Source of the DNA: Eledone cirrhosa
Taxonomy: Eukaryota
Direction of reading: 5' to 3'
Length of the DNA: 64,000 nucleotides
NCBI GenBank assembly: GCA_964016885.1
Contig: OZ024741.1
Span: 73,842,001-73,906,000 of the forward strand
The notes below the pieces were generated by a model. That model worked only from the letters and a program-made list of their open reading frames with translations. It was not told where the DNA came from and ran no database searches. The stretch's first letter is position 1, and the number at the start of each line of letters is the position of its first letter. Position numbers and translations under genes: made by a program. Below are positions 6,680 to 63,900 of this stretch, piece by piece.

Positions 6680-6711
<32 letters not shown>

Positions 6712-7584: not shown

Positions 7585-7691
7585 CAGTTGCTTTCACTTC
7601 AATTTATTATAATAAATTTATAATAAATTTATAAATTTATAAATTTCTGGTTGGTTGGTTGGTTCCACAACCAGATAGTTGTTTATATATT

Positions 7692-7734: not shown

Positions 7735-8034
7735 TGGGGATTCCTTTCTTTGTTTTTGTGCCTCTCCTTTGTTCTGTCCTACGCCATTTTGTTTCTGTGT
7801 GTGTGTTGTGTGCTCAGTCTGCGCATGCGCCACATCCGGGTGTCTGTGTGTGTTTATGTTCATTTATTTATTTGTTTTTTACATGTTACTGGTTGGTTGT
7901 TTGTTCTATGTGTGTGTGTGTTTTCATTTTGTCCTTAATTGTAAGTTGTGATGTTGCTGTTCCACTCATGTTCCACCCGGATGTGGCGCATGCGCAGACT
8001 GAGCACACAACACACACACAGAAACAAAATGGCG

Positions 8035-9702
8035 ACTTATGTCGGACAGACGGGACGTCGCCTGGCGGACCGAGTCACGGAGCACCTCCGAGATATTCGT
8101 CTCGGGGGCAGTTCCCCCATCGCCCGCCACTTTGGTGGCCCTGGACACTCCGCACGCCATCTCACAGTCTGTGGCCTACTCCAGTGCCACGGAACACCCG
8201 CCCATCGCCTTACGGTCGAACAACGAACTATCTTCATCTTACAGACCCACACTCCCCCCGGCCTGAACTCCCCACCCTTATTCCTTTAGCGTTCGACCGC
8301 CCCCCTCCCCCCACACTTATCCCCCACTAACACCACTAACACACCCCTGCTTTTCACCGCCCACCCCACACTAACAATACTAACACCTCCACTCCACCCC
8401 TCATCTGACCACCCTTCCCCAACTAACATACTAACATCCCTTCCCTCCCCTCTTCTCCTCCTCCCCCTCCTTATCACACGCACACACGCACCCACTTACA
8501 CCACCCACCCCACACGCAACTAACATCACTAACACCCACCAACCTCACGCACACGTACCCACACACCCTTGTACACCACCAACTCTACACACCCTACCAC
8601 CACTAACCCCCACTCACACCTGCATTCAACCCCTCCCCACCTCCCAATTACTAACACCCACTAACACCTCTTCACCAAACTACACACACACCAGTACACC
8701 ACACTCCCTCCATAGAACCACACACACCCTTCTCTCCCCGCTCCACCCACACCCCCGCTCCACACTCACTCATCCCACTAACACCCCTACTAATACACAC
8801 ACACACCTACCCATACTCGCCCCCTTCCCATTCCACCGACTGCTGCTATGCCCTTCTGACCACCTCCCAGCACCAACAGACCACAGCACACCCACTGCTG
8901 ACCACTTCCTGTTGCGCGCGCACCCCCACATCTCTCCTCTTCCGACCACCGCTTCATGGATTACCCACACGCAGAAATTGACTTATAACCAATCCTCCAA
9001 AATCCTTGGAACTTACCAACTTTTCAACCATCCTCTTACGTCATCACCTACATAACTCACCCACACACACACCCCCCAAAAAATGTTTTTCTCCACACGC
9101 CACCCACACCCACACCCACACCCACAACACGCTTTAACCCCACACACACGTGCTTCCCACCACATATTTACACCCTCAGCCTCCTGATTCCTCTCCCCCA
9201 CCCCCTATCCACACACGCACAGACACTCCGACCCACAAAAACACCCCCCACACACACCTCTTCCTGAACATGCAACCCCGTTCTTCCCCCAACCCTTACT
9301 TTCACATACACACACACACACACACACACGCACACCTACACACACACACCACCTTCAGCCCTCCCCGCTCGGACACCCCGTCTCCCTCTCCCCACTCCAC
9401 CCGCCACCTGTTTACGCCCCTTTTAATTTCAGTTTATTTTGATCATACCTTTATTTTTAAATTTTCTCATTCCTTGTATTTTGATCATGCTTTATTTTTA
9501 TATTTTTTATCTTTTTTCGCTATATGTCTCTCCACCACTCCCCTACACACCTTTTGAACTCTGTTCCCACACACTTCTCACCTGAGGAAGGGCTTATGCC
9601 CGAAACGTCGTCCCCCACCTACCCCCACTCTCCTGAGCGTGAAATTAATAAACATTTATTGTACTGCCTCTCTGTTTTGTCCCTGTAAAAAATTTTTTTC
9701 AT
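8035..9702 (+). mobile_element. 5'-truncated PLE (PLE2, Neptune-like): GIY-YIG C-terminus and long C/A-rich 3' UTR
   Basis: TYVGQTGRRLADRVTEHLRDI...PIARHF...EQRTIFILQTHTPPGLN (to 8289); hammerhead at 9579-9612; ends at (TA)n; second copy at 35500-37270. Confidence 0.85.
9579..9612 (+). ncRNA. Minimal hammerhead in the PLE2 3' end
   Basis: AC-CUGAGGA-A-GGGC uuau GCCC-GAAA-CG-UC-GU; stem I very short. Confidence 0.7.
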
Positions 9703-18464: not shown

Positions 18465-19603
18465 GCGCGCGCACAAGCATATATCTCTATCTATTAATCA
18501 CTCTCACCACACCATCGCTACTTCCATCTTCATTAAACCAACAGACGCCTAATCTTACCTCGACTTCACCTCCTCTCAGCCAACCCACACCAAACACTCC
18601 ATACCCTATTCCCGATTCCTCTGTCTTCGTCGACTCTGTAGCCAGGACGACGATTTCGAAAGCCATTCCCTTTGCATGGCTTCCTGCTTCATCCAGCATG
18701 GATATCTCCCCACCCGCGCCCGTGAAACAGACCGCACCACAGCCCTCTCATCTCACCTGTGTTCCTTTCCCTCTCACCTACCACCCCATCACCTTATCAC
18801 TCCGGCGACATATCCTCCGTTCTTTCCGTATCCTCTATTCTGACCCCGTCACTTTTCGCTTTTTTACAAACTCACCCATTACTACTTTTAAGCGTCCCCG
18901 CAATCTCCGCGACCTCCTGGTTCGCAGTTCCTTTTCGTCCTCTCCCACGACTCCACCTGGCTCTCATCTTTGTTCCCGTTCCCGCTGCAACACTTGTCCC
19001 TTTATTTCCACCCTCACCACTCTTACAGGCCCTAACGGGTCTTTCCGTATCCGCCATTCCTTCACCTGCACATCCACCCACGTTGTCTATGCCCTCCGGT
19101 GTTCCCTTTGCGGGGCTTTATATATCGGACAAACGGGACACCGTATGGCGGACTGTTTTGCCGAACATTTGAAGGACATACAACTCGGTTTGGATACTCC
19201 TCTCGCCCGTCATTTCTGTTCTCCTGGTCATTCTTCCCTACATGTTTCAGTCCTGGGTGTCCTTTTTCATCATGGATCACAGGACTGAACAAAATCTGAT
19301 TCACCACCTTGGGTCCAATTCCCCTCTTCGACTCAACTCACCTCCCCAATTTCTCTAATACCCCGCCCATTATCACACCTCTAGATTCCTATCGCTTTCT
19401 CTTGATCATTAGCAGCTTCTCTTACAACTAATACATGCCGACTATATATATGCTCACTCCACTTTTCCCTTCACTACTCTGTATACACACATACACACCC
19501 TTATATTAACATACTTTTGCTCATAGCTTCGTACTTACATTGCACACACACTCTTTTACTCACACATACACACACATTTATTCTTAGCTTCGTACGGGCG
19601 TAT

Positions 19604-25579: not shown

Positions 25580-26124
25580 GTCCAGAATTAGCCGTCGAAA
25601 CGGCTTGAGCTCAGCTGTCGGGGTCTTACTGGTTCCTTACCACATTTCCTTCGTTATAATATATATATATATATATGTGTGTGTGTATTGAAATTTCCGT
25701 TGAAAACAGGAAAGGTCATAGAAGTGAAGAGTGCTCTATGTAAGTACCAGAGCAAAATTTAATGTATAAAAATCAATACAATATAATTACCTCATTACCA
25801 GAGGTTTCCCGAATGAGGCGAATACGAAAGAAACGTCTTCATTCGTTCGTCAGACAGACGAGGCAATATAAAACATGGGTAAATACTTGGAAAGTCTCAT
25901 CAAGTAAAGCAAAAAAATATAGACAAATGAATTAGAATATGAAATATATAAAAATCTTTCAATAAATATAGTTAGGTGTGTGTATATGTATGTATATACG
26001 CTCACAGATGTGCATATATGTGTATGCACATATGTATACGTATAGTGAAAAAGTGTGCGTAAATATATAATTTAGGGCAAATGTATCTGTGTATCTGTAA
26101 TCTACAGACAGAATAGATACATCA

Positions 26125-27920
26125 TAATAATAAGTTCATCTTCTCCGATAAAACTAAAAACCTATATGAAGTTAACAATAATTTACACGACCAACTATTA
26201 ATAGATAATATCACCTCTAAATACCAAATAGCTAATATAAATACGTACCATAATATAAATAAGGAAGCTAAAGAATTAGCTGTTTCTTTAAAAATAGATA
26301 ATAAGAGAGAAAAACTTGCTAAACGCAATGCGTACATCACCCTTAAAGATTACAAACCCGACTTTATTAATCGTCCTAGTTGTAGATTAATCAACCCTGC
26401 TAAGACTGATATTGGTCTTGCCAGCAAAAAAATTTTAAATAATATAAATACACACATTAGAAGTAAGTCTAAATTACTCCAATGGATAAATAGTTCTTCC
26501 GTAGTACATTGGTTTAATAATATTAAAAACAAAAATAGTTCTAGATTCACCCAATTTGACATTGTAGATTTCTACCCATCTATCACTCAGACCCTTTTAG
26601 CGAAAGCTTTAAATTTCGCTAGAGGGTTTACTAATATCTCCGATATTGAAGAGAATGTCATCTTGCACGCTAGAAACACTCTACTCTTTACTGATAATGA
26701 CACTTGGGTAAAAATATCTAACCCAGAGAGCCCATTCGATGTCTCAATGGGCTCTTATGACAGTGCTGATGTTTGTGATTTGGTCGGCCTATTCCTCCTA
26801 CATACACTTAAAGAAAAATTTCCTAACCATATTTTGGGGCTTTATCGCGACGATGGTCTAATACTTTCCCATACCACCATAGGCCATAACTCAGATAGAT
26901 TAAGGAAAGACTTAATAAAAACCTTCGCTAGTTTTAATCTTAAAATTACTATTGACACTAACCTTTCCAATGTAGATTTCCTAGATATAAACCTAGATTT
27001 GCCTACTGCTTCTTATAAACCATACCATAAACCTAATGAAAACTTAAAATATATAAATAAAGGCTCGTGCCATCCTCCTATAGTTTTTAAAAACCTTATC
27101 CCTAATATTAGCCGTAGGATCTCCACCCTCTCTTCCTCAGAAGCTATTTTTAATAAGGCATCCCCCTACTATAATAAAGCCCTCCAAAATAGCGGTTTTA
27201 GCGAACCGATTAAATACATACCCAACTATACTAACTCTATTAAACATAAAAACAGGAAAAGAAAAATAATCAGTTAAAACTAATGTAGGCAAAAAATTCC
27301 TAGAGCTCCTAGATAAACATTTCCCTAGAACACATAGATACTATAAGATCTTTAACAGAAACTGTGTCAAAATTAGCTATTCCTGCGGTCCCCCTATTAA
27401 TTCCTATATCATCAACAAAAAATCACCTAGAGAAAATCAAACTTGCTCCTGTAGAATCAAAAGTGAATGCCCATTACAAGGTAAATGCAACACCAAAGCC
27501 ATTGTATATGCGGCTAAAGTGACAACCATCAGCAACAACCATCCAGCCACCAGTGAACGATATGTGGGTATGACGCAAGACAAATTCAAAACGCGTTATT
27601 ACTCACATGTCGCATCCTTTCGACATCCAGAAAAAAAATTTACAACAGCTCTGGCTAGCAGAATTTGGGATTTGAAAGACCAAGGCATCCAATATAAATT
27701 GGATTGGTCAATTTTGAACCAATCTAAAGAATATGCAAGAGGAACAAGAAAATGCACGCTCTGCATAAATGAAAAATATTGGCTCTTGCAAAATCTTAAA
27801 TCACCAAAGACCTGCCTGAACACAAAGACGGAAATTTTCACCAGTTGCCCACACATGAAATCACAGCTGCTTTCCAGCTCATATAAACTTAACACACTTT
27901 CAGATACTTATCCTCCATAA
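26125..27920 (+). pseudogene. PLE RT + C-terminal GIY-YIG endonuclease, frameshifted near 27275
   Basis: ITLKDYKPDF..PSCRLINPAK, FDIVDFYPSI, FDVSMGSYDSA, GLYRDDG, linker CSCRIKSECPLQGKC (CxCx5C), IVYAAKV, YVGMTQDKFKTRYYSH, CTLCINEK. Confidence 0.88.
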
Positions 27921-31339: not shown

Positions 31340-31471
31340 ATATATATATATAGTAATAATAATAAATTTGAAGACTAAAATCCAAAGAGGGCTCGATAAG
31401 GATAAATATATATCAAATTATTATTACTATTTGGCTCCCTCGGTTGAGCACTCTATTGACTTATATTCATC

Positions 31472-32010
31472 ATGCAGAAACAACATCTGAATATTTCTAC
31501 AAAGAACATACCCGAACCAAGCAGGAAAACATACCTAAAACTCCTGATACAGAAAACAGACGCGTTCATTAAAAGGTTGCGTTGGCGTGCCCTTTATTTC
31601 GATAATCCGCGAAAAGCTGACAACAAACAGGATAAATTTGGGTTTAAAACCTATAATAACCCTCCGTGTAACCCAGCATTGCTACCCTTCGAAAATGATG
31701 TCTTGGAACTCATACGGAGTATCAAATTTCGGAATAGGAGCAATTCCTTCCAGCAGGACCTGAAGAATAGAATTCGTTCTATTAAGGATTCTAATGCCGT
31801 GCACGTCCACTCCGACAAAACTGGCAATCTATATCAAGTGGAGCGCAGTACTTACCATCAACTACTACATAATTCTGTAACCAAGGATTACCGTAAAACT
31901 AATCGGTGCGTCATCAATGAAATCAACGATGCTGGGTTTAAAATCACCTCTGATCTCAACATCCTGGACCGGCTTATTAACCCTACGAAGTCCGATTTAG
32001 GTAGACTTAG
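31472..32010 (+). pseudogene. N-terminal fragment of a PLE3-type ORF with internal deletion
   Basis: ISTKNIPEPS..YLKLLIQKTDAFIKRLRWRA, SDKTGNLY (cf. SDKTKNLY in PLE3), fused to RLINPTKSDLG. Confidence 0.75.
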
Positions 32011-32154
32011 TCAGTTCATCGGAGCTTGCGAGAATGAAGAGAATATACAGGCATGAAAGGAATATACAGGCTACTATATGAAGTAGTAATGGCATTCAGT
32101 TAGAACAATAACAATAATATCAACAATGCTAGCATATTCTCTTCATTCTCGCAA

Positions 32155-38888: not shown

Positions 38889-38952
38889 AATAAATGACTT
38901 AAACTGAACTTTGATTACTGTAATCTCTATATATGTATATGTATGTATGTAT

Positions 38953-41900
38953 GTTCTTCTGGTTTTATAATTTCACAAAGTTTTACCAATAGAGAGAGAG
39001 TCGGTTTCTAACATAGACACAAGACTCTCTCATTGGAATTTACACAACATCAACTAGGTAGATATGTATGTATGTCTGCATGCATGCATGTATAGAAATG
39101 GATGTTATTGTATGTGTGGATGTGTATGTTTTGAGTTGTATGTGTGCATGTGTATATGTTTTGTATATGTACATGTGTATATGCAGTTATTAGATGCAAA
39201 ATTTTTGGAATGTTTTACATATTTTACTGTTCCATTAATGGATTGTACTTGTAATTTCTTAACTAGTTGTGTTCGTTCTGTTCCTGTGAAGCCTAGCTTC
39301 TCAAGATTTGTATTGAGGCAGTTACTAACATATCCCAGTACCCCAATAATCACAGGCATAAATCTGAAGGTGTAATCAGGGTGGAGTATGTGCAGATTTC
39401 TCATCAGTTCTGCATAAATGTTCTCCTTTTCACTAATCTTTGATATTATATTGGCATCTGCTGGGCAGCTAATTTCCACTACTGTGCATGTTTTCTTCTC
39501 CCTGTCCCATATCATAATATCTGGTCTGTTATGCCTGCATTTTATTGGGGTTTTTACTGGAACATTCCACCTGTGCTCTTTCATATTATGTACATGGATG
39601 TCTTCCACATTGTTGTAGCTTTTAATGTGTTTATCATCGGGGCTATCTTTTTTACGAACTGCATTGTACAGTGTTTTGGCCACTACATCATGCCTCATAG
39701 GTAGATAGTACCGCGATGACATCTTTGGGCAGCTGCTGATGACATGGGTGATATCCTCGATGTTAGTTCTGCAGAGTCTGCACTTGTTATCACATCTAGG
39801 TGTTTTGCCTGCATCCCTATCTCTTTTGTGAATCAGGTATTTCGTGCTAATCTCCTGTTCCTGGATTGCAAAAGCGTATCCTTCAAAGTGGGAGCCAATA
39901 TAGCGGTTGTTGGTCCAAGATAGACTACTTTCCTTATCTATATTACTCTCACTCTGGAGCTTCCTGGCAACATATCCATGCATGATTTTTTGCTGATAGG
40001 CATGCAGTTTTTCATCCATGGATTCACTGCGATACTGCTGAGTGACATCCCTGGGTGTGAGTTTTTGATTATCACACAGGGAATATCTCTCAAGGAGTTC
40101 CTTCCCAACTCTCATGATCTTATCTGTTTCATGCAGATAGACTTGCTCGAGAAACAGGCTCCTACGCTTCGAGGTTCGCAGATATTGTCGGAGAGATATG
40201 ATGCGACTTTCAAATGTTGTCTGGACTGATGTTAGGCCTCTGCCTCCCTGCTTACGTTTCAAGTAAAGGCGGTCTATGTCACTGTTGATGTGGAAGTTTC
40301 CGGTGTTGTTCAGTATTTTTCGAGTTCCAACATCAACTGCTCGGATTTCGTCTATCGTCCAATTGAGTATTCCAAACGTTGGTGTTAGGACAGGCACAGC
40401 AAACACATTGTGAGCCACTGTTTTGTTTTGCGCAGAGAGTTCCGATGACCAGATCTTTCTTAATCGGGTGTAGTATTCCCTGGTTACGCGTTCTTTATTA
40501 AAGATACCATTATAGGATATGTTCTCATCTATCCCCAGGTATCTGTAGCAGTCCTCATCAGATATCGGTGAAACAGTTAGGCCATTGATGACAATGTTGC
40601 AAGATTTGGTTGTTGTTTTTCCCCGCTTTACAGTCATGTATGAGCATTTATCTTGGCCAAACTCCATTCCTATATCCTTTGAGAACGTTGTAACCAGGTC
40701 AAGATTTTTCTTCATTCCATCCATGTTCTTGGCATAGAGTTTCAGATCGTCCACAAAGAAATTATGGGTTAGGTACGTATTTCTGTCCTCCTGTGAGCCA
40801 ATGATGTATCGATCACATTTCTTGAGCAGAAAGGACAAGGGGTTTAATGACAAGATGAATAATATCACAGAGAGACTGTCCCCCTAAAATATACCCCTGC
40901 AATATTTTAGTTTATCTGTGAAAATAGAGTCCTCCCTCTCTGTCTTTAACCTTAGGATAGTAGCCCAAGAAGAAGACAGCCTCTCTATGGCTCTGACAAT
41001 AATGTCTGGGACTTTAGCAAGTTGGAGGGCCTCTATCATCCAAGAGTGGGGAACAGAATCGAAAGCTTTCTTGTAGTCCAACCAGACTGTAGTCATATTC
41101 CTTCTAAGTTGTCGCACCTCCGACATCGCAGTTTTGTTGATTAGGAGTTGTTCAGCACATTCCCAAACCCTTTTCTTTCCAGCTGCTTGTTCATCTGTGA
41201 TGATGTTATTATTTTCACAGTGATCTTGGAGGAATAGGTTGAGGCAGGCTGTATACATCTTATACATTAGGTTCTGGCATGCAATGGGTCGGTAGTTTTT
41301 TGCCAAGTGGGTGTCTTTGTTCTTGGGGACCAGTAACGTTTGTGCTAATGTCAACCATTCTGGTATAAGTGTATCTCCCTTAAGAACTTGTTGGTAGAGG
41401 TCAGTAAGATACCCCCGATAGAATATTAGTTTTTTGTACCAGTAGCCGACAATCATGTCTCTTCCTGGTGTTTTCTTATCTTGGAGTTTTCCTATCACAG
41501 TCTCAAGGGTACCCTCACTTATTTCGTATGTTTTTGTTGTAGTGTAGGAGCAATAGTTCTTTCGGATTTCTCTTAGCCACACTGCATCTTGGTTGAAATT
41601 CTTCTTTTCACCCCATATTTTGCTCCAAAAGGAATCTATGTCTTTCTGGGATGAGGCCTCAGTGACACTTATCATTTTGCCCTTCATATCTCTATAGACT
41701 GATGTTTGGTTTCGTCTGAATCTTTTATTAAGCACTTTTCTCTCATCTACCTTCTTCAGGTATCGGCGTTTTTCGCTAACAGCTCTCAAATCTTGTTTGA
41801 GGGTGATCAGCTTATATTGGAGAGTTCTTGTTCTACTGTTACCAAACATCGTCTCTATTTTATTTTTCACTCTTTGTTGGTGAGGAGTGAGGTTTTTTTG

Positions 41901-43064
41901 TGTTTGTTTGCATGTAACGAGCATTGTCACATGTCCTATGTTTTTTCGTAGGTCAGCACTCTTTTTTTTCTATTTTAGTTATATATGATGGTATTTTTGG
42001 TGGTGTTTTGTTCTTGTTAATATCTCTGCTATCACCAAGATAATGCTTCACTGTCATTGCTAAGGCATATAAACAGGCGTTGATTTGCCAAAATGTTGGG
42101 GTTTTTATCCGTCGTAAATATTCATCCCCTATTTCGTCAATAACACGTAATATTTCATTATTTGGTTTTTTATTCACCATTGTCATTTTAACACGTTCAG
42201 CCAGAGAAATATTTATACATGAGTTAATTTCTCTCTGGAAGATTTTGTTGAGGGAAATTTTCAATTGTTTATAGTTTTTGATTATCATTATCGATAGTAT
42301 TTTCCACAACTGTCGAGGTAGACTCAGATAGTATACGTGGTGTCACATTTATTCGATTATTATTATTATTTCTTCGATTATTATTATTATCGATAGTGTT
42401 TTCCCCAGCATTCGAGGTAGACTTAGATGGTACAGGCATAGTTGTTTCAAGGCGCTGTTCGACCTGGCTGCTAGGAAGTCTAGTAGCATGGCGATCTGTA
42501 GCACGTGTTGTTGTTTCCATGTTTGTTGTGGGGGACTTACAATTAATAATATTTATCTTATTTTTACGTTCAACAAACGTCGCTTGTTGGCGTAATTGTT
42601 TCGCTGTGAAATAATTTAGCTCTGGGTGCATTTCGTCCCAGTGTAGCTTCATTCTATTCATATAGCCAATGGAGGGATTGTTTTTTGCCATTTTATAACA
42701 ATTAAATAAATCATTATTAAGTTCGCAACTCCAAGAGAAATGCGATTTATAATTTCGGTTTCCTCTGTAGCTACAACTGAATAAAGTTTGATTACCTTCT
42801 TTGTTATTTGTCTTCAATACTTCCTTAATTTTCTTGTTGATGTTGTGTTCAGCCATGCTGTTTGTAGCAAATCCTTGTAAAATGAATTATGTATTTAGTC
42901 GGATATCTCTACGAATTCGAATAAAAGGCGTCTTCAGAAGGGATAGTTAGAAGAATAACCAGTTATTCAACCTGGCTGTAGTTGTGGCATTACTGTCGGA
43001 GATAGTATTCATCTTAAATTTAATAAATAGTCTCCCACGCCAAAATATGTGACTGATCGCGTTG
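38953..43064 (-). mobile_element. R4/Dong-clade non-LTR retrotransposon, family A copy 1, flanked by (CATA)n
   Basis: Full-length layout shared with 56806-61032; both ends in (CATA)n on the sense strand. Confidence 0.9.
39190..42856 (-). pseudogene. R4/Dong-type single ORF: N-terminal domain, RT, CCHC knuckle, restriction-like endonuclease
   Basis: WSCELNNDLFNCY..GYMNRMKLHWDEMHPE; NYRPIAC; WLDYKKAFDSVPH; GIF*GDSLS (nonsense at 40884); FFVDDLKLY; CRLC...HVISSC; RHD; RPDIMIWD..VVEISCP; frameshifts near 42290, 41950 and 39222. Confidence 0.9.
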
Positions 43065-43124
43065 TATGTATGTATGTATGTATGTATGTATGTTTGTATG
43101 TATGTATGTATGTATGTATGTATG

Positions 43125-43152
<28 letters not shown>

Positions 43153-43155
<3 letters not shown>

Positions 43156-43981
43156 TCTCTTTCTCTTAATTTCGAGTATATTTTTTTTGACCGGCCACCT
43201 TCCTGGTGGCAAGGTTGTAAAAGAAAAGAAATTGTCATCCCTTGAATCGCAAGAATGTTTTGCAAATTTTGAAGGTGCCAGCTATCGCAGCCATTTGTAG
43301 ACTATGAATTAGGGAGCTGTGCTTTTTGTCCGCAAATCCAAGTTAAGTCATACTTTGGTCCAAGCGGGTTGGTATATAACCCGTAGCTCCAATAATGATG
43401 GATATGAAGCTAAAGGTGTATCTTGGATACTGGATTTGTAAACTCCTCATCAATGGTCCGTAGATGTCCTCCTTCTCCTGTATTTTTCTTACAACGTTTA
43501 CACAAGTAGGCAGCTGATCTGCACAACAGAACACGTTTTCAATGTATGGTCCCAAACAACAATATCAGGCCGGTTGTGCTTTAATTTTGTGGCAGTTTTT
43601 ATTTTCAGGTTCCACCAGTATTCCTTGGTGCCATCTGTCTCAATATATTCTTCCTCGTTTGTTATTAATTTTGTTTTCCGAAGTGCGTTCCAGATGGTTC
43701 TAGCTATCCCATCGTGTCTCATGGGGAGGTAGTAGCGAGATGACATTCTTTCGCAGCTGGCAACTATGTGGCTTACATCCTCGATCTTTGTTTTACATAG
43801 CCTACATTTATTGTCAGCTGCTTGCCCTCCTCTTTTGTGCAGCAGATATTTGGTAGGGAGTTCTTGTTCCTGTATTGCATAGAGATATCCCTCAAGGTAT
43901 GATGTCATAAACTTGTCGGAACTCCATGCCAGGCTTTTTGAGTGGTTTATCCCCTCTATGGTCTGTGTTTTACGCCTCAAG
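43153..43981 (-). mobile_element. 5'-truncated R4/Dong family B (endonuclease region and 3' UTR) between (CATA)n tracts
   Basis: AIQEQELPTKY, CRLCKTKIEDVSHIVASC, RHD, RPDIVVWD; 3' end nearly identical to 56167-56406. Confidence 0.85.
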
Positions 43982-44045
43982 TATGTATGTATGTATGTAT
44001 GTATGTATGTATGTATGTATGTATGTATGTATGTATGTATGTATG

Positions 44046-44261
44046 ACCTGCGGCTCAGTAGTTACCGTTGATGTTGAGCTTTTCTTCTTTTCGGGTTATA
44101 GCTACTGTCGCTCAAAGAGTGGGATTGGCTCGGTGCACAGTCTTTCCTCACTTTAAAATAATTCTTCACGCACAGGCATTGCACAATAGAATTAATTAAT
44201 AATTATTAATAATGGTATATCGTGCAATGGCCATACTCGGTAACAAGGGGGCAACCATCAT
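44046..44261 (+). mobile_element. Short RTE-derived non-autonomous element
   Basis: Homologous to 61537-61650 and 61250-61390 (minus); ends ...gcaaccatca followed by a tgta-like tail; preceded by (TGTA)n. Confidence 0.7.
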
Positions 44262-44329
44262 GAATGTATATATACAGGCGTGTATGTGTGTGTGTGTGTA
44301 ATGATTGTGTATGTGTCTTGTTATAGTCT

Positions 44330-46590
44330 TGATGCTAGTGGTGGAAGTGTTGACGGGGTTAGATGCTAGTGGTACTCGTAGTGGTGGTGATGGTGTCGTG
44401 ATGTTGCTGGTGGTGGTGTGGTGGTGTTGCTGGTGGTGGTGTGGTGATGTTGCTGGTGGTGATGTGGTGGTGTTGTTGTGGTGGTGTGATGTTACTGGTG
44501 GTGGTGTGGTGGTGTGGTGATGTGGTGGTGTGGTGGTGTTGTTGGTGGTGGTGTGGTGATGTTGTTGGTGGTGGTGTGGTGGTGGTGTGGTGGTGTTGCT
44601 GGTATGGTGGTGTGGTGGTGTGGTGATGTTGCTGGTGGTGATGTGGTGGTGTTGTTGGTGGTGGTGTAATGTTGCTGGTGGTGGTATGGTGGTGTGGTGG
44701 TGTGGTGGTGTGGTGATATGGTGGTGTGGTGTGGTGGTGTTGTTGGTGGTGGTGGTGTGGTGATGTTGTTGGTGGTGGTGTGATGTTGCTGGTGGTGGTG
44801 TGGTGGTGTTGGTGGTGTGGTGATGTTGCTGGTAGTGGTGTGGTGGTGTGGTGGTGTGGTGTCGTGATGTGGTGGGGTGGTGTGGTGGTGTTGCTGGTGG
44901 TGGTGTGGTGATGCGGTGGTGGTGTGGTGATGTGGTGGTGTGGTGGTGGTGGTGTGGTGGTGTTGCTGGTGGTGGTGTGGTGGTGTTGTTGCTGGTGGTC
45001 TGGTGGAGTGGTGGTGTGGTGATGTTGTGTGGTGGTGGTGGTGGTGGTGGTGGAGTGGCGGTGTTGCCTATGGTTATGGTGGTGGTGGTGTGGTGGTGTT
45101 GCTAGTGGATGGTGGTGGTGGTGGTGGTGTGGCGGTGTTGCTGGTGGTGGTATGGTGGAGTGGTGGTGTGGCGGTGTTGCTGGTGGTGGTGGTGGTGGTG
45201 TGGTGGTGTTGCTGGTGGTGGTGTGGTGGTGTTGTTGCTGGTGGTGTGGTGGAGTGGTGGTGTGGTGATGTTGTGTGGTGGTGGTGGTGGTGGTGGTGGT
45301 GGTGGTGGTGGAGTGGCGGTGTTGCCTATGGTTATGGTGGTGGTGGTGTGGTGGTGTTGCTGGTGGTGGTGTGGTGGTGTTGCTGGTGGATGGTATGGTG
45401 GAGTGGTGGTGTTGCGGTGTGGCTGGTGGTGGTGGTGGTGGTGTGGCGGTGTTGCTGGTGGTGGTATGGTGGAGTGGTGGTGTGGCGGTGTTGCTGGTGG
45501 TGGTGGTGGTGTGGCGGTGTTGCTGGTGGTGGTATGGTGGAGTGGTGGTGTGGCGGTGTTGCTGGTGGTGGTGGTGGTGGTGTAGCGGTGTTGCTGGTGG
45601 TGGTATGGTGGAGTGGTGGTGTGGTGGTGTTGCTGGTGGTGGTGGTGGTGGTGGTGGTGGTGGTGGTGGTGGTGGTGTGGTGGTGTTGCTGGTGTTGCTG
45701 GTGGTGGTGGTGGTGTGGTGATGTTGCTGGTGGTGGTGTGGTGGTGTTGCTGGAGGTGGTATGGTGGAGTGCTGATGTGGCGGTGTTGCTGGTGGTGGTG
45801 GTGGTGTGGCGGTGTTGCTGGTGGTGGTGGTGTGGTGGTGGTGCTGGTGGTGGTGGTGGTGGTGGTGTTGCTGGTGGTGGTGGTGGTGTGGTGGTGTTGC
45901 TGGTGGTGGTATGGTGGAGTGGTGGTGTGGCGGTGTTGCTGGTGGTGGTGGTGGTGGTGTGGCGGTGTTGTAGGTGGTGGTGGTGGTGGTGGTGTGGTGG
46001 TGTTGCTGGTGGTGGTGGTGGTGGTGGTGGTGGTGGTGTGGTGGTGTTGCTGGTGGTGGTGGTGGTGGTGTTGCTGGTGGTGGTGGTGTTGCTGGTGGTG
46101 GTGGTGTGGCGGTGTTGCTGGTGGTGGTATGGTGGAGTGGTGGTGTGGCGGTGTTGCTAGTGGTGGTGGTGGGGGTGTGGCGGTGTTGCTGGTGGTGGTG
46201 GTGGTGGTGTGGCGGTGTTGCTGGTGGTGGTGGTGGTGGTGTGGCGGTGTTGCTGGTGGTGGTGTGGCGGTGTTGCTGGTGGTGGTGGTAGTGGTGTGGT
46301 GGTGGTGGTGTGGCGGTGTTGCTGGTGGTGGTGGTAGTGGTGTGGGGGTGTTGCTGGTGGTGGTGGTGTGGCGGTGTTGCTGGTGGTGGTGGTGGTGGTG
46401 TGGCGGTGTTGCTGGTGGTGGTGGTGGTGGTGGTGTGGCGGTGTTGCTGGTGGTGGTGGTGTGGTGGTGTTGCTGGTGGTGGTGGTGGTGGTGGTGTTGC
46501 TGGTGGTGGTGTGGTGGTGTGGCGGTGTTGTTGGTGGTGGTGTGGTGGTGTGGCGGTGTTGCTGGTGGTGGTGGTGGTGGTGGTGGTAGT
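44330..46590. repeat. About 2.2-kb compound (GGT)n / GGTGT / GTTGCT minisatellite
   Basis: Direct reading. Confidence 0.95.
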
Positions 46591-47198
46591 TGTGTGAAGG
46601 AGAAAAAGAATGGATCTGTGAGAGATTGTGGTCGGTGTATGTGTAGGTGTGTCCGGCGCGTGTGTCTTTCGCGTGTATCTGCGCGCGTGCGTGTCTCTAC
46701 GCGTGCGTGTGCGTTCGTGATAAAAGACACGGTTACATAGCAAACGTGACGGTGTGAAACAAAGTCAGGGAGGGGGAGGAGTGAGAGAAGTGGGGGATGA
46801 TAGATAGGTAGATAGATATGGAGATAGATACATAGATAGATAGATGGAGGGATAGACAAACCGACATAGAGGTAGATAGACAGACAAATTGACATACGAG
46901 ACAGTAACACGCTGAGCAGAGAGAAGAGATAAAATAAAGCCTTATTCTTTTATTATGTGTTCTATCAACGTGACGTTATAAAAGGAACATATACTGAGGA
47001 TGTTGTAATACAAGACATCTAGCGCCCTCTGTGCATCATTGAAAAGTTGTTTTTTATATACGTGACAAACAGCCCCTCCAATATAAGCTTGTAGTGGGTG
47101 TGGTATAAAACAGCTATCATTGATTTAAATACAATACCTTGTAAACTTGGTAAAAGTTACACCTCTAAAATTACATATCTCTCTCTGTCCACTATATA

Positions 47199-56007: not shown

Positions 56008-56077
<70 letters not shown>

Positions 56078-56166
56078 TACATACATACATACATACATAC
56101 ATACATACATACATACATACATACATACATACATACATACATACATACATACATACATACATACAT

Positions 56167-56406
56167 TGGAGCTACGGGTTATATACCAACCCGCTTGGAC
56201 CAAAGTATGACTGAACTTGGATTTGCGGACAAAAAGCGCAGCTCCCTAATTCATAGTCTACAAATGGCTGCGATAGCTGGCACCTTCAAAATTTGCAAAA
56301 CATTCTTGCGATTCAAGGGATGACAATTTCTTTTCTTTTACAACCTTGCCACCAGGAAGGTGGCCGGTCAAAAAAAAATATACTCGAAATTAAGAGAAAG
56401 AGATAA
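56167..56406 (+). mobile_element. 3' end of R4/Dong family B between (CATA)n tracts
   Basis: Nearly identical to 43153-43392 (minus). Confidence 0.85.
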
Positions 56407-56480
56407 CATACATACATACATACATACATACATACATACATACATACATACATACATACATACATACATACATACATACA

Positions 56481-56690
56481 TGATGGCTGCAAACTCTGCC
56501 AAGAGTATTGCAATCGCTTGTCAGATTAAGATGTGTGGCGCTCGGATATGGCTTTTCAAGCCTGCTAGAGACTTGCACTCCTTCTCACATTGACGACAAC
56601 AATGGATCTCTCTGGCCTCAGGGCTTACATCAGGTTGCCTGTGAACCTTCACAATGCCGTGGAGATCATAGTTCACTGGTTCTCTTTGAA
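56481..56690 (-). mobile_element. 3' end of an RTE-type LINE with (TGTA)n tail
   Basis: Minus-strand frame HCCRQCEKECKSLAGLKSHIRAPH..* (C-terminal C2H2 finger seen in RTE/BovB-type ORFs), then a 3' stem-loop and CAGCCATCA(TGTA)n. Confidence 0.72.
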
Positions 56691-56740
56691 CATACATTCA
56701 TACATACATACATACATACATACATACATACATACATACA

Positions 56741-56774
<34 letters not shown>

Positions 56775-57013
56775 CATACATACATATATACATACATAAT
56801 ACAGTCAACGCGATCAGTCGCATATTTTGGCGTGAGAGACTATTTATTAAATTTAGGATGAATACTATCTCCGACAGTAATGCCACGACTACAGTCAGGT
56901 TGAATAACTGGTTATTCTTCTAACTATCCCTTCTGAAGACACCTTTTATTCGAATTCGTAGAGATATCCGACTAAATACATAATTCATTTTACAAAGATT
57001 TGCTACAAACAGC

Positions 57014-60000
57014 ATGGCTGAACACAACATCAACAAAATAATTAAGGAAGTATCAAAGACAAACAACAAGGAAGGTAATCAAACTTTATTCAGTTGTAGC
57101 GACAGAAGAAACCGAAATTATAAATCGCATTTCTCTTGGAGTTGCGAACTTAATAATGATTTATTTAATTGTTATAAAATGGCAAAAAAGAACAATCCTT
57201 CCGTTGGCTATATGAATAGAATGAAGCTACACTGGGACGAAATGCACCCAGAGCTAAATTATTTCACAGCGAAACAATTACGCCACAAGCGACATTTGTT
57301 GAACGTAAAAATAAATATTATTAATTGTAAGTCCAGTTCAAATCCCGCCGAGGTTTACTTTGCCTTTCATCCTTACGGGGTCGATAAAATAAAGTACCAG
57401 TAATACACTGGATAATTTGCTGGCCTTGTGCCTAAAGTAGAAACAATTATTAATTGTAAGTCCCCCACAACAAACATGTTATCAACAACACGTGCTACAG
57501 GTCGCCATGCTACTAGACTTCCTAGCAGCCAGGTCGAACAGCGCCTTGAATCAACTATGCCTGTAAGAAACTTGACACCACCTGTACCATCTAAGTCTAC
57601 CTCGAATGGTGGGGAAAACACTATCGATAATAATAATAATCGAAGAAATTTGACACCACGTGTACCATCCGAGTCTACCTCGACTATTGTGGAAAATACT
57701 ATCGATAATGATAATCAAAAGTATAAACAATTGAAAATTTCCCCCAATGAAATCTTCCAGAGAGAAATTAACTCATGTATAAATATCTCTCTTGCTGAAC
57801 GTGTTAAAATGACAATGTTGAATAAAAAACCCAATAATAAAATACTACGTGTTATTGACGAAATAGGGGATGAATATTTACGACGGATAAAAACCCCAAC
57901 ATTTTGGCAAATCAACGCCTGTTTATATGCCTTAGCAATGACAGTGAAGCATTATCTTGGTGATAGCAGAGATATTAACAAGAACAAAACACCACCAAAA
58001 ATACCATCATATATAACTAAAATAGAAAAAAAGAGTGCTGACCTACGAAAAAACATAGGACATATGACAATGCTCCTTACATGCAAACAAACACAAAAAA
58101 CCTCACTCCTCACCAACAAAGAGTGAAAAATAAAATAAAGACGATGTTTGGTAACAGTAGAACCAGAACTCTCCAATATAAGCTGATCACCCTCAAACAA
58201 GATTTGAGAGCTGTTAGCGAAAAACGCCGATACCTGAAGAAGGTAGATGAGAGAAAAGTGCTTAATAAAAGATTCAGACGAAACCAAACATCAGTCTATA
58301 CAGATATGAAGAGCAAAATAATAAGTGTCACTGAGGCCCCATCCCAGAAAGACATAGACTCCTTTTGGAGCAAAATATGGGGTGAAAAGAAGAATTTCAA
58401 CCAAGATGCAGTGTGGCTAAGAGAAATCCGAAAGAACTATTGCTCCTACACTACAACAAAAACATACGAAATAAGTGAAGGTACCCTTGATACTGTGATA
58501 GGAAAACTCCAAGATAAGAAAACACCAGGAAGAGACATGATTGTCGGCTACTGGTACAAAAAACTGATAATCTATCGGAGGTATATTACTGACCTCTACC
58601 AACAAGTTCTTAAGGGAGACACACTTATACCAGAATGGTTGACATTAGCACAAACATTACTGGTCCCCAAGAACAAAGACACCCACTTGGCAAAAAACTA
58701 CCGACCCATTGGATGCCAGAACCTGATGTATAAGATGTATACAGCCTGCCTCAACCTATTCCTCCAAGATCACTGTGAAAATAATAACATCATCACAGAT
58801 GAACAAGCAGCTGGAAAGAAAGGATTTTGGGGATGTGCTGAACAACTCCTAATTAACAAAACTGCGATGTCGGAGGTGCGACAACTTAGGAGGAATATGG
58901 CTACAGTCTGGCTAGACTACAGGAAAGCTTTCGATTCTATTCTCCACTCTTGGATGATAGAGGCCCTCCAACTTGCTAAAGTCCCAGACATTATTGTCAG
59001 AGCCATAGAGAGGCTGTCTTCTTCTTGGGCTACTATCCTAAGGTTAAAGACAGAGAGGGAGGACTCTATTTTCACAGATAAACTAAAATATTGCAGGGGT
59101 ATATTTCAGTGGGACAGTCTCTCTGTGATATTGTTCATCTTGTCATTAAAGCCCTTGTCCTTTCTGCTCAAGAAATATGAGGGATACATCATTGGCTCAC
59201 AGGAGGACAGAAATACGTACCTAACCCATAATTTCTTTGTGGACGATCTGAAACTCTATGCCAAGAACATGGATGGAATGAAGAAAAATCTTGACCTGGT
59301 TACAACGTTCTCAAAGGATATAGGAATGGAGTTTGGCCAAGATAAATGCTCATACATGACTGTAAAGCGGGGAAAAACAACAACCAAATCTTGCAACATT
59401 GTCATCAATGGCCTAACTGTTTCACCGATATCTGATGAGGACTGCTACAGATACCTGGGGATAGATGAGAACATATCCTATAATGGTATCTTTAATAAAG
59501 AACGCGTAACCAGGGAATACTACACCCGATTAAGAAAGATCTGGTCATCGGAACTCTCTGCGCAAAACAAAACAGTGGCTCACAATGTGTTTGCTGTGCC
59601 TGTCCTAACACCAACGTTTGGAATACTCAATTGGACGATAGACGAAATCCGAGCAGTTGATGTTGGAACTCGAAAAATACTGAACAACACCGGAAACTTC
59701 CACATCAACAGTGACATAGACCGCCTTTACTTGAAACGTAAGCAGGGAGGCAGAGGCCTAACATCAGTCCAGACAACATTTGAAAGTCGCATCATATCTC
59801 TCCGACAATATCTGCGAACCTCGAAGCGTAGGAGCCTGTTTCTCGAGCAAGTCTATCTGCATGAAACAGATAAGATCATGAGAGTTGGGAAGGAACTCCT
59901 TGAGAGATATTCCCTGTGTGATAATCAAAAACTCACACCCAGGGATGTCACTCAGCAGTATCGCAGTGAATCCATGGATGAAAAACTGCATGCCTATCAG

Positions 60001-60804
60001 CAAAAAATCATGCATGGATATGTTGCCAGGAAGCTCCAGAGTGAGAGTAATATAGATAAGGAAAGTAGTCTATCTTGGACCAACAACCGCTATATTGGCT
60101 CCCACTTTGAAGGATACGCTTTTGCAATCCAGGAACAGGAGATTAGCACGAAATACCTGATTCACAAAAGAGATAGGGATGCAGGCAAAACACCTAGATG
60201 TGATAACAAGTGCAGACTCTGCAGAACTAACATCGAGGATATCACCCATGTCATCAGCAGCTGCCCAAAGATGTCATCGCGGTACTATCTACCTATGAGG
60301 CATGATGTAGTGGCCAAAACACTGTACAATGCAGTTCGTAAAAAAGATAGCCCCGATAATAAACACATTAAAAGCTACAGCAATGTGGAAGACATCCATG
60401 TACATAATATGAAAGAGTACTGGTGGAATGTTCCAGTAAAAACCCCAATAAAATGCAGGTATAACAGACCAGATATTATGATATGGGACAGGGAGAAGAA
60501 AGCATGCACAGTAGTGGAAATTAGCTGCCCAGCAGATGCCAATATAATATCAAAGATTAGTGAAAAGAAGAACATTTATGCAGAACTGAAATGAAATCTG
60601 CAGATACTCCACCCTGATTACACCTTCAGATTTATGCCTGTGATTATTGGGGCACTGGGATATGTTAGTAACTGCCACAATACAAATCTTGAGAAGCTAG
60701 GCTTCACAGGAATAGAAAGAACACAACAAGTTAGGAAATTACAAGTACAATCCATTAATGGAACAGTAAAAATATGTAAAACATTCCAAAAAGTTTGCAT
60801 CTAA
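57014..60804 (+). pseudogene. R4/Dong-type RT-RLE ORF, disrupted
   Basis: 837-aa segment 58081-60594 with all RT and RLE motifs; SINE insertion, frameshifts near 57290, 58095 and 60590; QGD changed to QWD. Confidence 0.9.
57335..57445 (+). mobile_element. 5'-truncated SINE S1 inserted in LINE A copy 2
   Basis: 18-bp TSD ATTATTAATTGTAAGTCC (57317-57334, 57446-57463); site is empty in copy 1 near 42535-42552. Confidence 0.92.
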
Positions 60805-61042
60805 TAACTGCATATACACATATACAGATGCAAAGCATATACACATGCACACATACAACTCAAAACATCCACATCCACACATACAATTACATCCATATCT
60901 ACACATGCATGCATACATACATACCTACCTAGTTGATGTTGTGTAAATTCCAATGAGAGAGTCTTGTGTCTATGTTAGAAACCGACTCTCTCTCTATTGG
61001 TAAAACTTTGTGAAATTATAAAACCAGAAGAACATACATACA

Positions 61043-61494
61043 TGGTGGCTGCCAACTCGTTTTCGAATACGGCCACTACTTTATATCCATGTAGGAGAAC
61101 CCCTACCGATGCGCTGAACGAGTGTGACTTTTTAGTCCAGCCAGCGACTTGAAAACTCTGGTACAAACACTACACTTGTGACAATTATTGACACATAGTG
61201 CTGGGCCCATGGTACCATGTGACGACAAGTGCAGAGAGATCTCCAGATATAAAGCAATGCCTGTGCCGTGAAGTTTTTATAGTGAGCAAAGGCACTGCAC
61301 AAAGCCAGTCCCACTCTCTTAACCAAGATGATATTTACCAAAAAGAAGAACAAGTCAACATCATTGGATACCATCAGGGTTGCAGGTGTTATATCAGAGT
61401 TTTCCTTCTCCTAGAATTCTGCCTTGACAAAGGCTAAGGGGTCATCTCTCCCGGTGATTTTGGATGGCCAGTGACTCTTAAGAGCTCCTTTGCC
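61043..61494 (-). mobile_element. Bipartite RTE-derived short element D (5'UTR part + 3' end)
   Basis: CTAGGAGAAGGAAAACTCTGAT motif of RTE 5' UTRs (61393-61414) joined to HKCSVCTRVFKSLAGLKSHTRSAHR* and a (TGTA)n tail. Confidence 0.75.
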
Positions 61495-61536
61495 CATACA
61501 TACATACATACATACATACATACATACATACATACA

Positions 61537-61812
61537 TGATGGCTGACCCTCGTTATCAAGTATGGACATTGCATGATATAACATTATTAATAATTATCAA
61601 TTAAGCTATCGTGCAATGCCTGTGTGTAGTGAGGAAAGACTGAGCTCCTTTGCCCTTTGACAGGTTTTGTTTTTAGTCCTGCAGGATGTCCAAAGTCACC
61701 CTCCTCACCAAGAAACCTTGGTGGGGTTGCCAGTTTAGTCGCCAACGACCCGACCACGGGACAGGTTGTACTGGGATACATGTTACCAGTAGCACCAACT
61801 GGTGACCTGACC
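61537..61812 (-). mobile_element. RTE-derived short element E
   Basis: Shares ggcaaaggagctc with D and its 3' part with 44046-44261; (TGTA)n on both sides. Confidence 0.7.
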
Positions 61813-61860
61813 ATACATACATACATACATACATACATACATACATACATACATACATAC

Positions 61861-62276
61861 AATGGCTGCATCTCGGTTTCGAGAATTGCCATCCCTTGAC
61901 CTTTTTCTCATACAAGGGTGGCATGAAAGTGACCTTTTAGCCCTGTCAAGTTCTTAGATTCCTTTCAGCATATACTGCAGCGAAAAAAATAAATAAATAA
62001 AAGATCATGCTCACGCAACACACATAAAAGTTGTTTAAATTAAGTGATACTTGTGCTTGAAGCTCTTTTAAGTGAAGAGAGGCCTTGCACTGGCCCAATC
62101 CCACTCTCTGATCAACGATGACAGCTATCCAAAAAGAACAGATCAACAACATTGGTTACCATCGAGTCGCAGGTTTTACATCAAAGTGTTCTGTCTTGAA
62201 TGAACTGAGGTCTCTCCCTCTCAGTGGGCTAACCGCGCGCTCGGGCACCAAACCGAGTTTTTCCATGTTCCCGCGC
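61861..62276 (-). mobile_element. Bipartite RTE-derived short element F
   Basis: Block homologous to D 61280-61390 plus degenerate finger CSIC*KESKNLTGLKGH; (TGTA)n on both sides. Confidence 0.7.
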
Positions 62277-62341
62277 ATACATACATACATACATACATAC
62301 ATACATACATACATACATACATACATACATACATACATACA

Positions 62342-63900
62342 TGATCATATGAAATTTTTGCGCACAATAAAACAATGCCTCGCAATGTGTTTACTGTGCC
62401 TGCCCTAACACCAACATTCGGACAACTCGATTGGACGATAGATGAAATTCGTGCTATTGATGTTAAAATCTGAAAAGTCCTAAACAACACCGGAAATTTG
62501 ACATCAACAGTGACATAGACCGCCTCTGCCTGAAACGTAAGCAGGGAGGCAGAGGCTTAACGTCAGTCAAAACAGCATTTGAATGTCGCATCATATCCCT
62601 CCGACAACATCTACGAACCTCAAAGCGTAGAAGCCCGTCTCTCGGGAAAGTCTATCTGCATGAGACATATAAGATCATGAGAGTTGGGAAGGAACTCCTT
62701 GAAAATATGCCCTGCGTGATAATCAAAAACTCACATCCAGAGAACTTGCTCGGTAGTACCGTAGTGAATCCGTGGATGAAAAACTGCATGCTTATCAGCA
62801 AAATATCATGCAGGGATATGTTGCCAGGAAGCACCAGGGTGAGAGTAATATAGATAAACAAAGTAGACTATCTTGGACCAACAACCACTATATTCCTCCG
62901 ACAGCATCTACGAACCAGCAAGCGTAGAAGATCATCTAGTGAACAAGTCTGTCTACATGAGACAAATAATATCATAAGAGATGAGAAGGAGCTCCTCGAA
63001 AAATTTTCCCTGCATGATAACCAAAAATTCACACATTGCAATGAATCCATGGAGGAAAAGTTGCATGCTTATCAGCAAAAACACATGCTTGGCTATGTTG
63101 CCAGAAAATATCAAAGTGAGATTAATATAGCAAAGCAGTCTATTTTGGTCCAACAACCAATATATTAGCTCTCAATTTGAAGGACACAATTTTGCAATCC
63201 AAGAACAAAAAATAACAACGAAGTACCTGATGCATGAAAGAGATAGGGATGCAGGCAAAACACTTAAATGTGGTAACAGATGCAGACTCTGCAGAATAAA
63301 CATTGAGGATGTCACCCACATCATAAGCAGCTGTCCAAAAATGTCATCACGATACTGTGTAGCTATGAGGCATAATGTAGTTACCAAAACACTATACAAT
63401 ACAATCCATAGAAAGGATAGCCCTGAGAATAAACACATAAAAAGTTACAGTGAGACAGAGGACATATGCATACATAATATGAAAAAGTACTGATGGAATG
63501 TTTCAGTCAAAACCTCAATAAAACGCAAACATAACAGAACAGACATGATGATATGGGTCAGAGAAAAGAAGGTATGCACAGTAGGGGAAATCAGCTGCCC
63601 AGCAGATGTCAATGTAATGCTAAAGATCAGTAAAAAGAACATTTATGCTGAACTAATGAGGAGCCTGCAGATGCTCCACTCTAACTATACCTTTAGATAT
63701 GTACCTGTGCTCATTGAGGCTCTGGGATATGTTACTAACTGCATCGGTACAAATCTTGAGAAGCTGAGCTTCACAGAAGCAGAAAAGGCACGACTACTTA
63801 GGAAGTTGCAAGTACAGTCCATTAATGGATCTGTAAAAATATGTAAAACATTTCAGAAATTCAGCATGTAATAACTGTCAATGCTTAATCAATGCCACAT
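62342..63900 (+). mobile_element. Degenerate 5'-truncated R4/Dong family-A relative with internal duplication
   Basis: Starts after (CATA)n; AVPALTPTFG, CRLCRINIEDVTHIISSC, EISCPAD, ICKTFQKFSM* (63871); segment about 62595-62893 is repeated in diverged form from 62893. Confidence 0.85.

Follow-up and report, generated by a model that had tools for sequence, protein, structure and literature searches.

The stretch of DNA considered here, which we call the window, comprises 64,000 nucleotides of Eledone cirrhosa (contig OZ024741.1, positions 73,842,001-73,906,000) within a 3.0-Gb genome. At 56071-63875 it carries a row of retrotransposon inserts set into one (CATA)n microsatellite, in the order family B 3' end (+), family C 3' end (-), full-length family A (+), family D (-), family F (-) and an old A-like piece (+). 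We assign families A and B to R4/Dong, and family C, with its short derivatives D, E' and F, to the RTE clade of long interspersed nuclear elements (LINEs). The basis for these names is domain order, homology and characteristic motifs, not labelled references, and for C domain order and such motifs. A second, smaller cluster lies at 38930-44270. The features of both are as follows.

56071..56166 (+): (CATA)n array of 96 nt, following a (CA)n run; it lies 5' of R4-B and is hence no tail
56167..56405 (+): R4/Dong-type family B, 5'-truncated 3' end, 99.6% identical to kin; full length about 4.25 kb
56406..56481 (+): (CATA)n array, flanked by the 3' ends of B and C
56482..56692 (-): RTE LINE family C, 3' end, 94% to kin; longer copies encode an apurinic/apyrimidinic endonuclease (APE)-like domain and a reverse transcriptase (RT)
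56699..56798 (+): (CATA)n array, flanked by the 5' ends of C and A and hence the tail of neither
56802..61031 (+): R4/Dong-type family A, full length, frameshifted; Myb/SANT-like N-terminal domain from 57014, and RT, CCHC knuckle and restriction-like endonuclease (RLE) motifs in 58042-60591
57335..57446 (+): fragment of an unrelated repeat resembling a short interspersed nuclear element (SINE), nested in A; the repeat served as negative control
61032..61043 (+): short (CATA)n array, flanked by the A 3' end and the D 3' end
61044..61495 (-): positions 157-610 of family D, a bipartite non-autonomous RTE derivative of 610 bp
61482..61495: first copy of a 14-bp target-site duplication
61496..61537 (-): insertion-made (TGTA)n array, the tail of the nested E' piece, enclosed by the duplications
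61538..61641 (-): E'-family RTE derivative, 3' 104 nt, inserted into D outside any repeat
61642..61811 (-): positions 1-170 of family D (resembling an RTE 5' untranslated region, UTR); contains duplication copy 2, 61642-61655
61812..61861 (+): (CATA)n array, flanked by the D 5' end and the F 3' end
61862..62275 (-): family F, old RTE-derived short element, at best 83% to kin
62276..62342 (+): (CATA)n array, flanked by the 5' ends of F and A'
62343..63875 (+; end approximate): old A-like R4 piece (R4-A'), partially duplicated internally, 86% and 80% identical to A and lacking (CATA)n at its 3' end
38955..43062 (-): second full-length family A copy, with sense-strand (CATA)n at both ends
43155..43980 (-): the 3' 826 nt of family B
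44046..44262 (+): 3' part of family E', a bipartite RTE derivative of about 580 bp at full length; (TATG)n on the 5' side, only a degenerate flank on the 3' side

Perfect (CATA)n runs on the plus strand stand at 56071-56166, 56406-56481, 56699-56798 (three runs), 61032-61043, 61495-61537, 61812-61861 and 62276-62342, and (TATG)n runs at 38938-38954, 43063-43154 and 43981-44045. The first-pass annotation had described seven consecutive inserts, each separated from the next by (CATA)n. The segments between the arrays do match the families and strands it gave, and the stacked inserts are real; six of them stand side by side, and the seventh is nested in D. Separation by (CATA)n holds for the row of six, and the last R4 copy, R4-A', has no repeat at its 3' side. 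What had been listed as a separate family E is rejected: it consists of positions 1-170 of D (61642-61811) and the nested 104-nt E' piece with its tail. A 610-bp copy of D aligns to both parts in the window, its positions 157-610 to 61044-61495 and 1-170 to 61642-61811, and the overlap is the 14-bp duplication. The second cluster (A -, B -, E' +), said to follow the same rule, does so in its strands and 5' flanks; the 3' flank of E' is only degenerate. Because the inserts of the stack range from 82% to 99.6-100% identity to their nearest fetched kin, re-use of the array must have extended over a long time.

Target preference across the genome

In each genome search 40 of 597-2627 candidates were scored and 30 loci returned; the queries carried no flanks, and the sample is therefore skewed towards young copies and not towards a flank type. 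A 5' junction was assigned to a repeat class when a run of at least 8 nt lay within the 30 nt preceding it, and the background was taken from random 30-mers of 40 10-kb stretches set at even intervals (the blind stretches). Families A and B yielded 93 mapped 5' junctions, a further 24 lying beyond the locus edge. Eighty-eight of the 93 are in CATA, one is in TATG, none is in (TA)n or (CA)n and four are in no repeat, with CATA preceding 55 of 58 full-length and 33 of 35 truncated copies. The 115 junctions of RTE families C and D divide into 61 TATG, 30 TA, 4 TG and 20 without a repeat, and not one is in CATA. Background 30-mers are CATA in 1.09%, TATG in 0.95% and TA in 9.48% of cases, and enrichment over this background is about 87-fold for CATA at R4 junctions, about 56-fold for TATG at C and D junctions and 2.8-fold for TA at the latter. 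The genome is very microsatellite-rich, with (TA)n making up 4.96% of its bases, and in the background (TA)n is about nine times commoner than (CATA)n, yet R4 junctions avoid it.

Family F was omitted from the 5'-junction count, its boundaries being unreliable at 76-83% identity and its start resembling the sequence that follows the internal repeat tract of E'. With that caution, its 29 copies show 12 TATG, 2 TA, 2 TG, 1 both and 12 none, and adding them to C and D places TATG at 73 of 144 RTE junctions. The 29 copies of E', with rough boundaries, give 15 TATG, 3 TA, 1 CATA and 10 none. Two controls were available. The SINE-like repeat had 4 of 107 junctions in the repeat and no preference of this kind. 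The other control, a second RTE-like family, ends in (GAT)n; a genome search for it returned nothing, and the copies tallied, many with approximate 5' edges, come from loci gathered for other families. It had TATG at 0 of 19 junctions and TA at 5 of 19, and likewise no such preference.

We hold it as nearly certain that R4 families A and B are all but confined to (CATA)n, with CATA on the sense strand, and that this is a real, genome-wide and strongly polarised targeting pattern. The use of (TATG)n by C and D is a preference, not specificity, as 30 of 115 insertions went into (TA)n and 20 fell outside repeats. The proposal that one microsatellite serves both clades as a shared, strand-polarised target is thus supported: 5' flanks are enriched for the repeat genome-wide and orientation is not random, with a polarity far beyond chance, the RTE side using the opposite strand more loosely than the first-pass annotation had it. 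At one locus (L006, before 1501), (CAGT)n stands ahead of a full-length A copy and resembles tandem repetition of the element's own first four bases. In the second RTE-like family (L124:1-1190 plus 18 further copies) the terminal (GAT)n often continues into (TA)n, which suggests that an AT-primed preference is general among the RTEs of this genome.

Neighbouring elements across a tetranucleotide spacer obey the same polarity. R4-R4 pairs point in the same direction in 36 of 37 cases and RTE-RTE pairs in 45 of 47, and R4-RTE pairs are opposed in 88 of 89. This polarity is partly built in where the spacer touches a 3' end, and the 5' junction tallies are independent of that; a comparison across (TA)n spacers comes to 2 pairs only. 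Linked neighbours lie within 1.5 kb in 64 of 116 R4-centred loci (48 mixed) and in 37 of 145 RTE-centred loci (18 mixed), and one of the 40 blind stretches holds a six-member mixed stack (L239) that follows the same rule. Mixed R4/RTE stacks, as proposed from the window, are therefore present genome-wide. Among the rare exceptions are two loci (L157:1501-3235 and L007 near 1490) where R4 pieces stand head to head, inverted across a CATA spacer, possibly by an event resembling twin priming.

Whether the 3' repeat of an RTE insertion is a tail or the target can be read in part from its flanks. In family D, 5' and 3' flanks are correlated in their G content (rho 0.61, n=55), the exact match between a copy's own flanks averages 12.9 nt vs 7.1 nt when permuted (p=0.0005, n=52), and interrupted examples give duplications of about 9-12 nt that begin at the element's terminal AT. 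Since the 3' flank mirrors the 5' flank and the duplications start at that AT, the 3' repeat of D is for the most part duplicated target. The nested E' piece in the window is different: its (TGTA)n tail lies within the 14-bp duplications (61482, 61642), and that array was therefore made by insertion. Tandem-repeat tails on RTE elements, which the first-pass annotation took as established, thus hold for this E' copy, and elsewhere the 3' repeat usually mirrors the target. The 3' junctions of R4 are fixed in phase, with ACATACA in 23 of 26 A copies and TAACATA in 22 of 29 B copies.

Proteins, relatives and derivatives

Families A and B, whose proteins are 50% identical, share a single open reading frame (ORF) with a predicted Myb/SANT-like N-terminal domain without zinc fingers, an RT, a CCHC knuckle and a C-terminal RLE of PD-(D/E)xK type. 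The RT and knuckle regions match RVT_1 and zf-RVT, and the motifs RHD, RPD, VEISCPxD and K are present; the same domain scan gave no EEP match, in keeping with elements without APE. The best solved-structure matches are R2 proteins. The N-terminal domain is conserved in homologs, a Bombyx mori protein included, and is modelled as a three-helix bundle (pLDDT >90) with SANT/Myb-type chains among its top structural matches (Z 5-6.7) and Myb_Rap1 as the Atlas lead (0.84). The B. mori protein, whose source label is not Dong, is 34% identical over 94% of the query, and among named homologs of family B the closest comes from Argonauta hians. Neither the 20 full-length A/B copies that were fetched nor 7 stretches of B contained a full ORF without a break. 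A check for a 5' ribozyme resembling that of hepatitis delta virus returned no ribozyme family among 147 Rfam matches on five loci, only repeat-driven microRNA noise, and folding z values ran from -0.3 to -2.0. The 3' UTR of family A contains a degenerate CA/CATA-rich tract (60830-60924 and 39063-39190) that includes a perfect run of 13 nt and may be an old target that was captured.

A quick tree was built from 26 of 80 metagenome loci, each contributing one segment of 450 aa or more, and was midpoint-rooted, with neither outgroup nor labelled references. In it, A and B group with L343, L345 and L344 (SH-aLRT 100), apart from (TAA)n-flanked elements. L343 has (CTTA)n on both sides and L345 at its 3' end, and L344 reaches no repeat; L343 and L345 are thus the nearest outside relatives in which a repeat is reached, and (CTTA)n is one base off (CATA)n. 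The other clade comprises the B. mori protein and 23 loci, of which 10 run into (TAA)n, 1 into (CT)n and 12 are uninformative. On the thin basis of the two informative loci, L343 and L345, there may be a tetranucleotide branch of R4/Dong.

Family C has an APE-like domain followed by an RT; one locus (L260) gave an RVT_1 match and a partial match to Exo_endo_phos (E 0.0012, below the cut-off, on a 108-aa piece). Its 3' UTR is short, with the stop about 50 nt from the end. The 5' part of D is 74-89% identical to the C 5' UTR and its middle 68-74%, the middle of F is 71-83% identical to the C 5' UTR region, and E' is likewise related. The 3' end of D encodes a C-terminus resembling that of C, and D, E' and F all carry RTE-like 3' ends. 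From their sequences, the three fit bipartite non-autonomous RTE derivatives, made of an RTE 5'-UTR part and an RTE 3' end without a small-RNA head. Inside a full-length E' of 580 bp (L432:1130-1712) lies a TA/TG tract, after which the sequence resembles the start of F, and E' may have been born from a stack, as a 5' part, an array and an older element. Other short derivatives (L438, L164, L106, L203, L063) join the C 5' UTR straight to the last ~50 nt of C.

Elsewhere in the window, 44196-46949 is a long degenerate tandem tract of (CCA/CAC)n type with low-complexity ORFs. Pieces at 4381-7593 (-), 26117-27920 (+), 31460-32056 (+), 7945-8289 and 18726-19288 (+), with a 1070-aa ORF among them, we take to resemble Penelope-type elements with RT and GIY-YIG domains; a Pfam scan of four of these Penelope-like pieces gave no match.

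Proposed mechanism and alternatives

We lean towards an account in which the TpA step of the repeat, to which both junction types map, would be nicked by R4 and RTE on opposite strands, and reverse transcription would be primed at the place of pairing between the RNA 3' end and the strand so nicked. A nick in the CATA strand would leave a primer ending in AT, matching RTE RNA ending in CCAU, and a nick in the TATG strand one ending in GT, matching R4 RNA ending in AC. R4 RNA ending in ACAUAC would pair only with the (TATG)n strand and mismatch (TA)n; RTE RNA ending in CCAU(GUAU) would pair with the (CATA)n strand and could tolerate (TA)n through G-T wobble. RTE would then be able to use (TA)n and R4 be barred from it, because an RNA G wobbles with T and an RNA C cannot pair with A, and RNA-end pairing could be the source of both the polarity and the RTE tolerance of (TA)n. 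Pairing of RTE 3' repeats has been proposed before (PMC6007223). The Myb/SANT-like domain of R4 probably contributes repeat recognition, as Myb does in R2; such a domain has been described in R4/Dong and argued to direct site choice (PMC7998251), and R2Bm reads an upstream motif with its zinc finger, Myb and RT loop and the cleavage site with its RLE (PMC10499050). The tetranucleotide-specific RLE that the first-pass annotation took to follow from the pattern is consequently not implied by it. Because Myb reading and RNA-end pairing are also possible, a specific RLE is one option among three.

Each insertion would leave repeat on both sides, and duplication, occasional tails and slippage would lengthen the array, so that stacks would keep drawing both clades. 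Arrays adjoining elements are indeed longer (median 80.5 nt, n=10) than free arrays (15 nt, n=25; p=0.0009), consistent either with growth or with elements favouring long arrays. The self-growth of stacks that had been proposed is plausible; its support, these longer arrays and the one array created between duplications, is indirect. More broadly, and more doubtfully, a tetranucleotide branch of R4/Dong, using (CTTA)n elsewhere and (CATA)n in octopods, might switch targets by means of a compact Myb domain and a few RNA-end bases and, with an RTE turned true microsatellite targeter, form a two-clade feedback loop in which each creates and extends the other's landing pads and so shapes octopus (CATA)n content and transposable-element clustering.

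Several observations weigh against this account. The junction tallies take in the best-scoring, hence young, copies, and among the six R4 pieces in the blind stretches CATA stands at the 5' edge of only three, compared with all six 3' ends; the three that lack it are older, 82-91% identical to references. The nick sites and RNA ends of R4 and RTE are read from junction phase within a periodic repeat, not observed. An R4 target duplication was looked for and none was detectable (p=0.83 and 0.34). Structural support for the Myb/SANT-like domain is middling, with a best Z of 6.7, and Foldseek with the N-terminal model found no match at E<=0.001. As to growth, the difference in array length may reflect target choice instead, copies of D in (TA)n targets gain no (TGTA) units, which leaves a long RNA tail on D unsupported, and among 239 RTE copies a new tail between duplications was seen in 1 of 60 non-repeat insertions, the window's own case.

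The scarcity of new tails tells equally against the view, which we consider improbable, that the arrays are mostly element-made tails to which later elements home, the shared target being a by-product. One array was demonstrably made between duplications, moth RTEs make repeats inside duplications (PMC2887409), and 7 of 13 background arrays of at least 20 nt touch an element; yet three arrays of the window stand 5' of both their neighbours or of the sole one, the 3' repeat of D copies its 5' flank, and no A-F element is found within 60 nt of 25 of the 35 background arrays. Recognition by protein alone, in which the R4 RLE, or Myb and RLE, would read (CATA)n, the RTE endonuclease would separately favour the other strand and RNA pairing would be incidental, draws on the complete absence of R4 5' junctions from (TA)n and (CA)n, on R2Bm, for which 3' homology is dispensable and 7 bp are read at the RLE site (PMC10499050), and on the lineage-specific targets of relatives, (CTTA)n vs (TAA)n. 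We nevertheless find it rather unlikely: two unrelated nucleases would have to converge on exactly opposite strands, D duplications starting at the element's own terminal AT would be left unexplained, and the RTE family with the (GAT)n end has no preference for TATG (0 of 19). Passive accumulation in repeat-rich neutral DNA, or assembly mis-joins at repeats, might be entertained in a genome so rich in (TA)n and other microsatellites; strict strand polarity, controls near background and the avoidance of the commoner (TA)n by R4 leave such explanations largely refuted and with hardly any credence. An assembly artefact is further opposed by the public run X2, perhaps the assembly's own source, whose contigs, at the 3' end of A, break off in CATA-like letters, with 101 loose ends at 61043.

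Relation to known systems

In Octopus vulgaris, Dong-R4 makes up the largest group of recently active LINEs (PMC13282606), and in the octopus papers Dong-R4 and RTE are described as abundant or active with the target unnamed (PMC13282606, PMC9115989); the pattern reported here supplies an insertion rule for these recently active LINE types, one unstated in the parts of those papers examined. It also bears on the somatic LINE activity claimed for octopus brain, as microsatellite insertions are likely hard to call from short reads. Moreover, opposite-strand use of one 4-bp repeat, together with the (TAA)n, (CTTA)n and (CATA)n variants, makes the shares of protein and RNA end in target choice testable.

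Microsatellite targeting is already known, Dong going to (TAA)n and Waldo to ACAY (PMC3812793), and Togen to (TG)n along with some HERO families (PMC4640811); the use of one repeat by two clades is unusual. The literature covered contains no report of a (CATA)n-targeting Dong or of shared R4/RTE stacks, though Repbase, Kojima & Fujiwara 2003/2004, Xiong & Eickbush 1993 and supplements lay outside its scope and may hold one, and the part of PMC4758252 available has nothing bearing on R4/RTE repeat sharing. Waldo (WaldoAg1/2, WaldoFs1; R1 clade) comes near in target, since ACAY covers the ACAT/CATA repeat, and differs in its APE endonuclease and insect hosts, sharing with a second clade not being described in that text (PMC3812793). 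Dong of B. mori, DongAg, DongBg and the ostracod Dong resemble A and B in ORF layout and in having microsatellite on both flanks. A and B differ from this group in belonging to a separate clade with (CTTA)n-flanked relatives, and with 88 of 93 5' junctions in (CATA)n they do not match the (TAA)n target of Dong proper.

On the RTE side, the APE-like domain and RT of C are those of RTE-clade LINEs, and the joining of 5' UTR and 3' end in D, E' and F is like that of the bipartite RTE derivatives described as Bov-A type and Ceph-SINE parts (PMC5786205). The tie between the 3' simple repeat and the first base of the duplication, described for RTE (PMC6007223), is a further likeness to the elements here. 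RTE insertion has been described as not sequence-specific, the repeat being created inside the duplication (PMC2887409). Unlike such RTEs, C and D have about half of their insertions, all in a single orientation, in (TATG)n that was there beforehand, and the repeat at their 3' end is mostly target.

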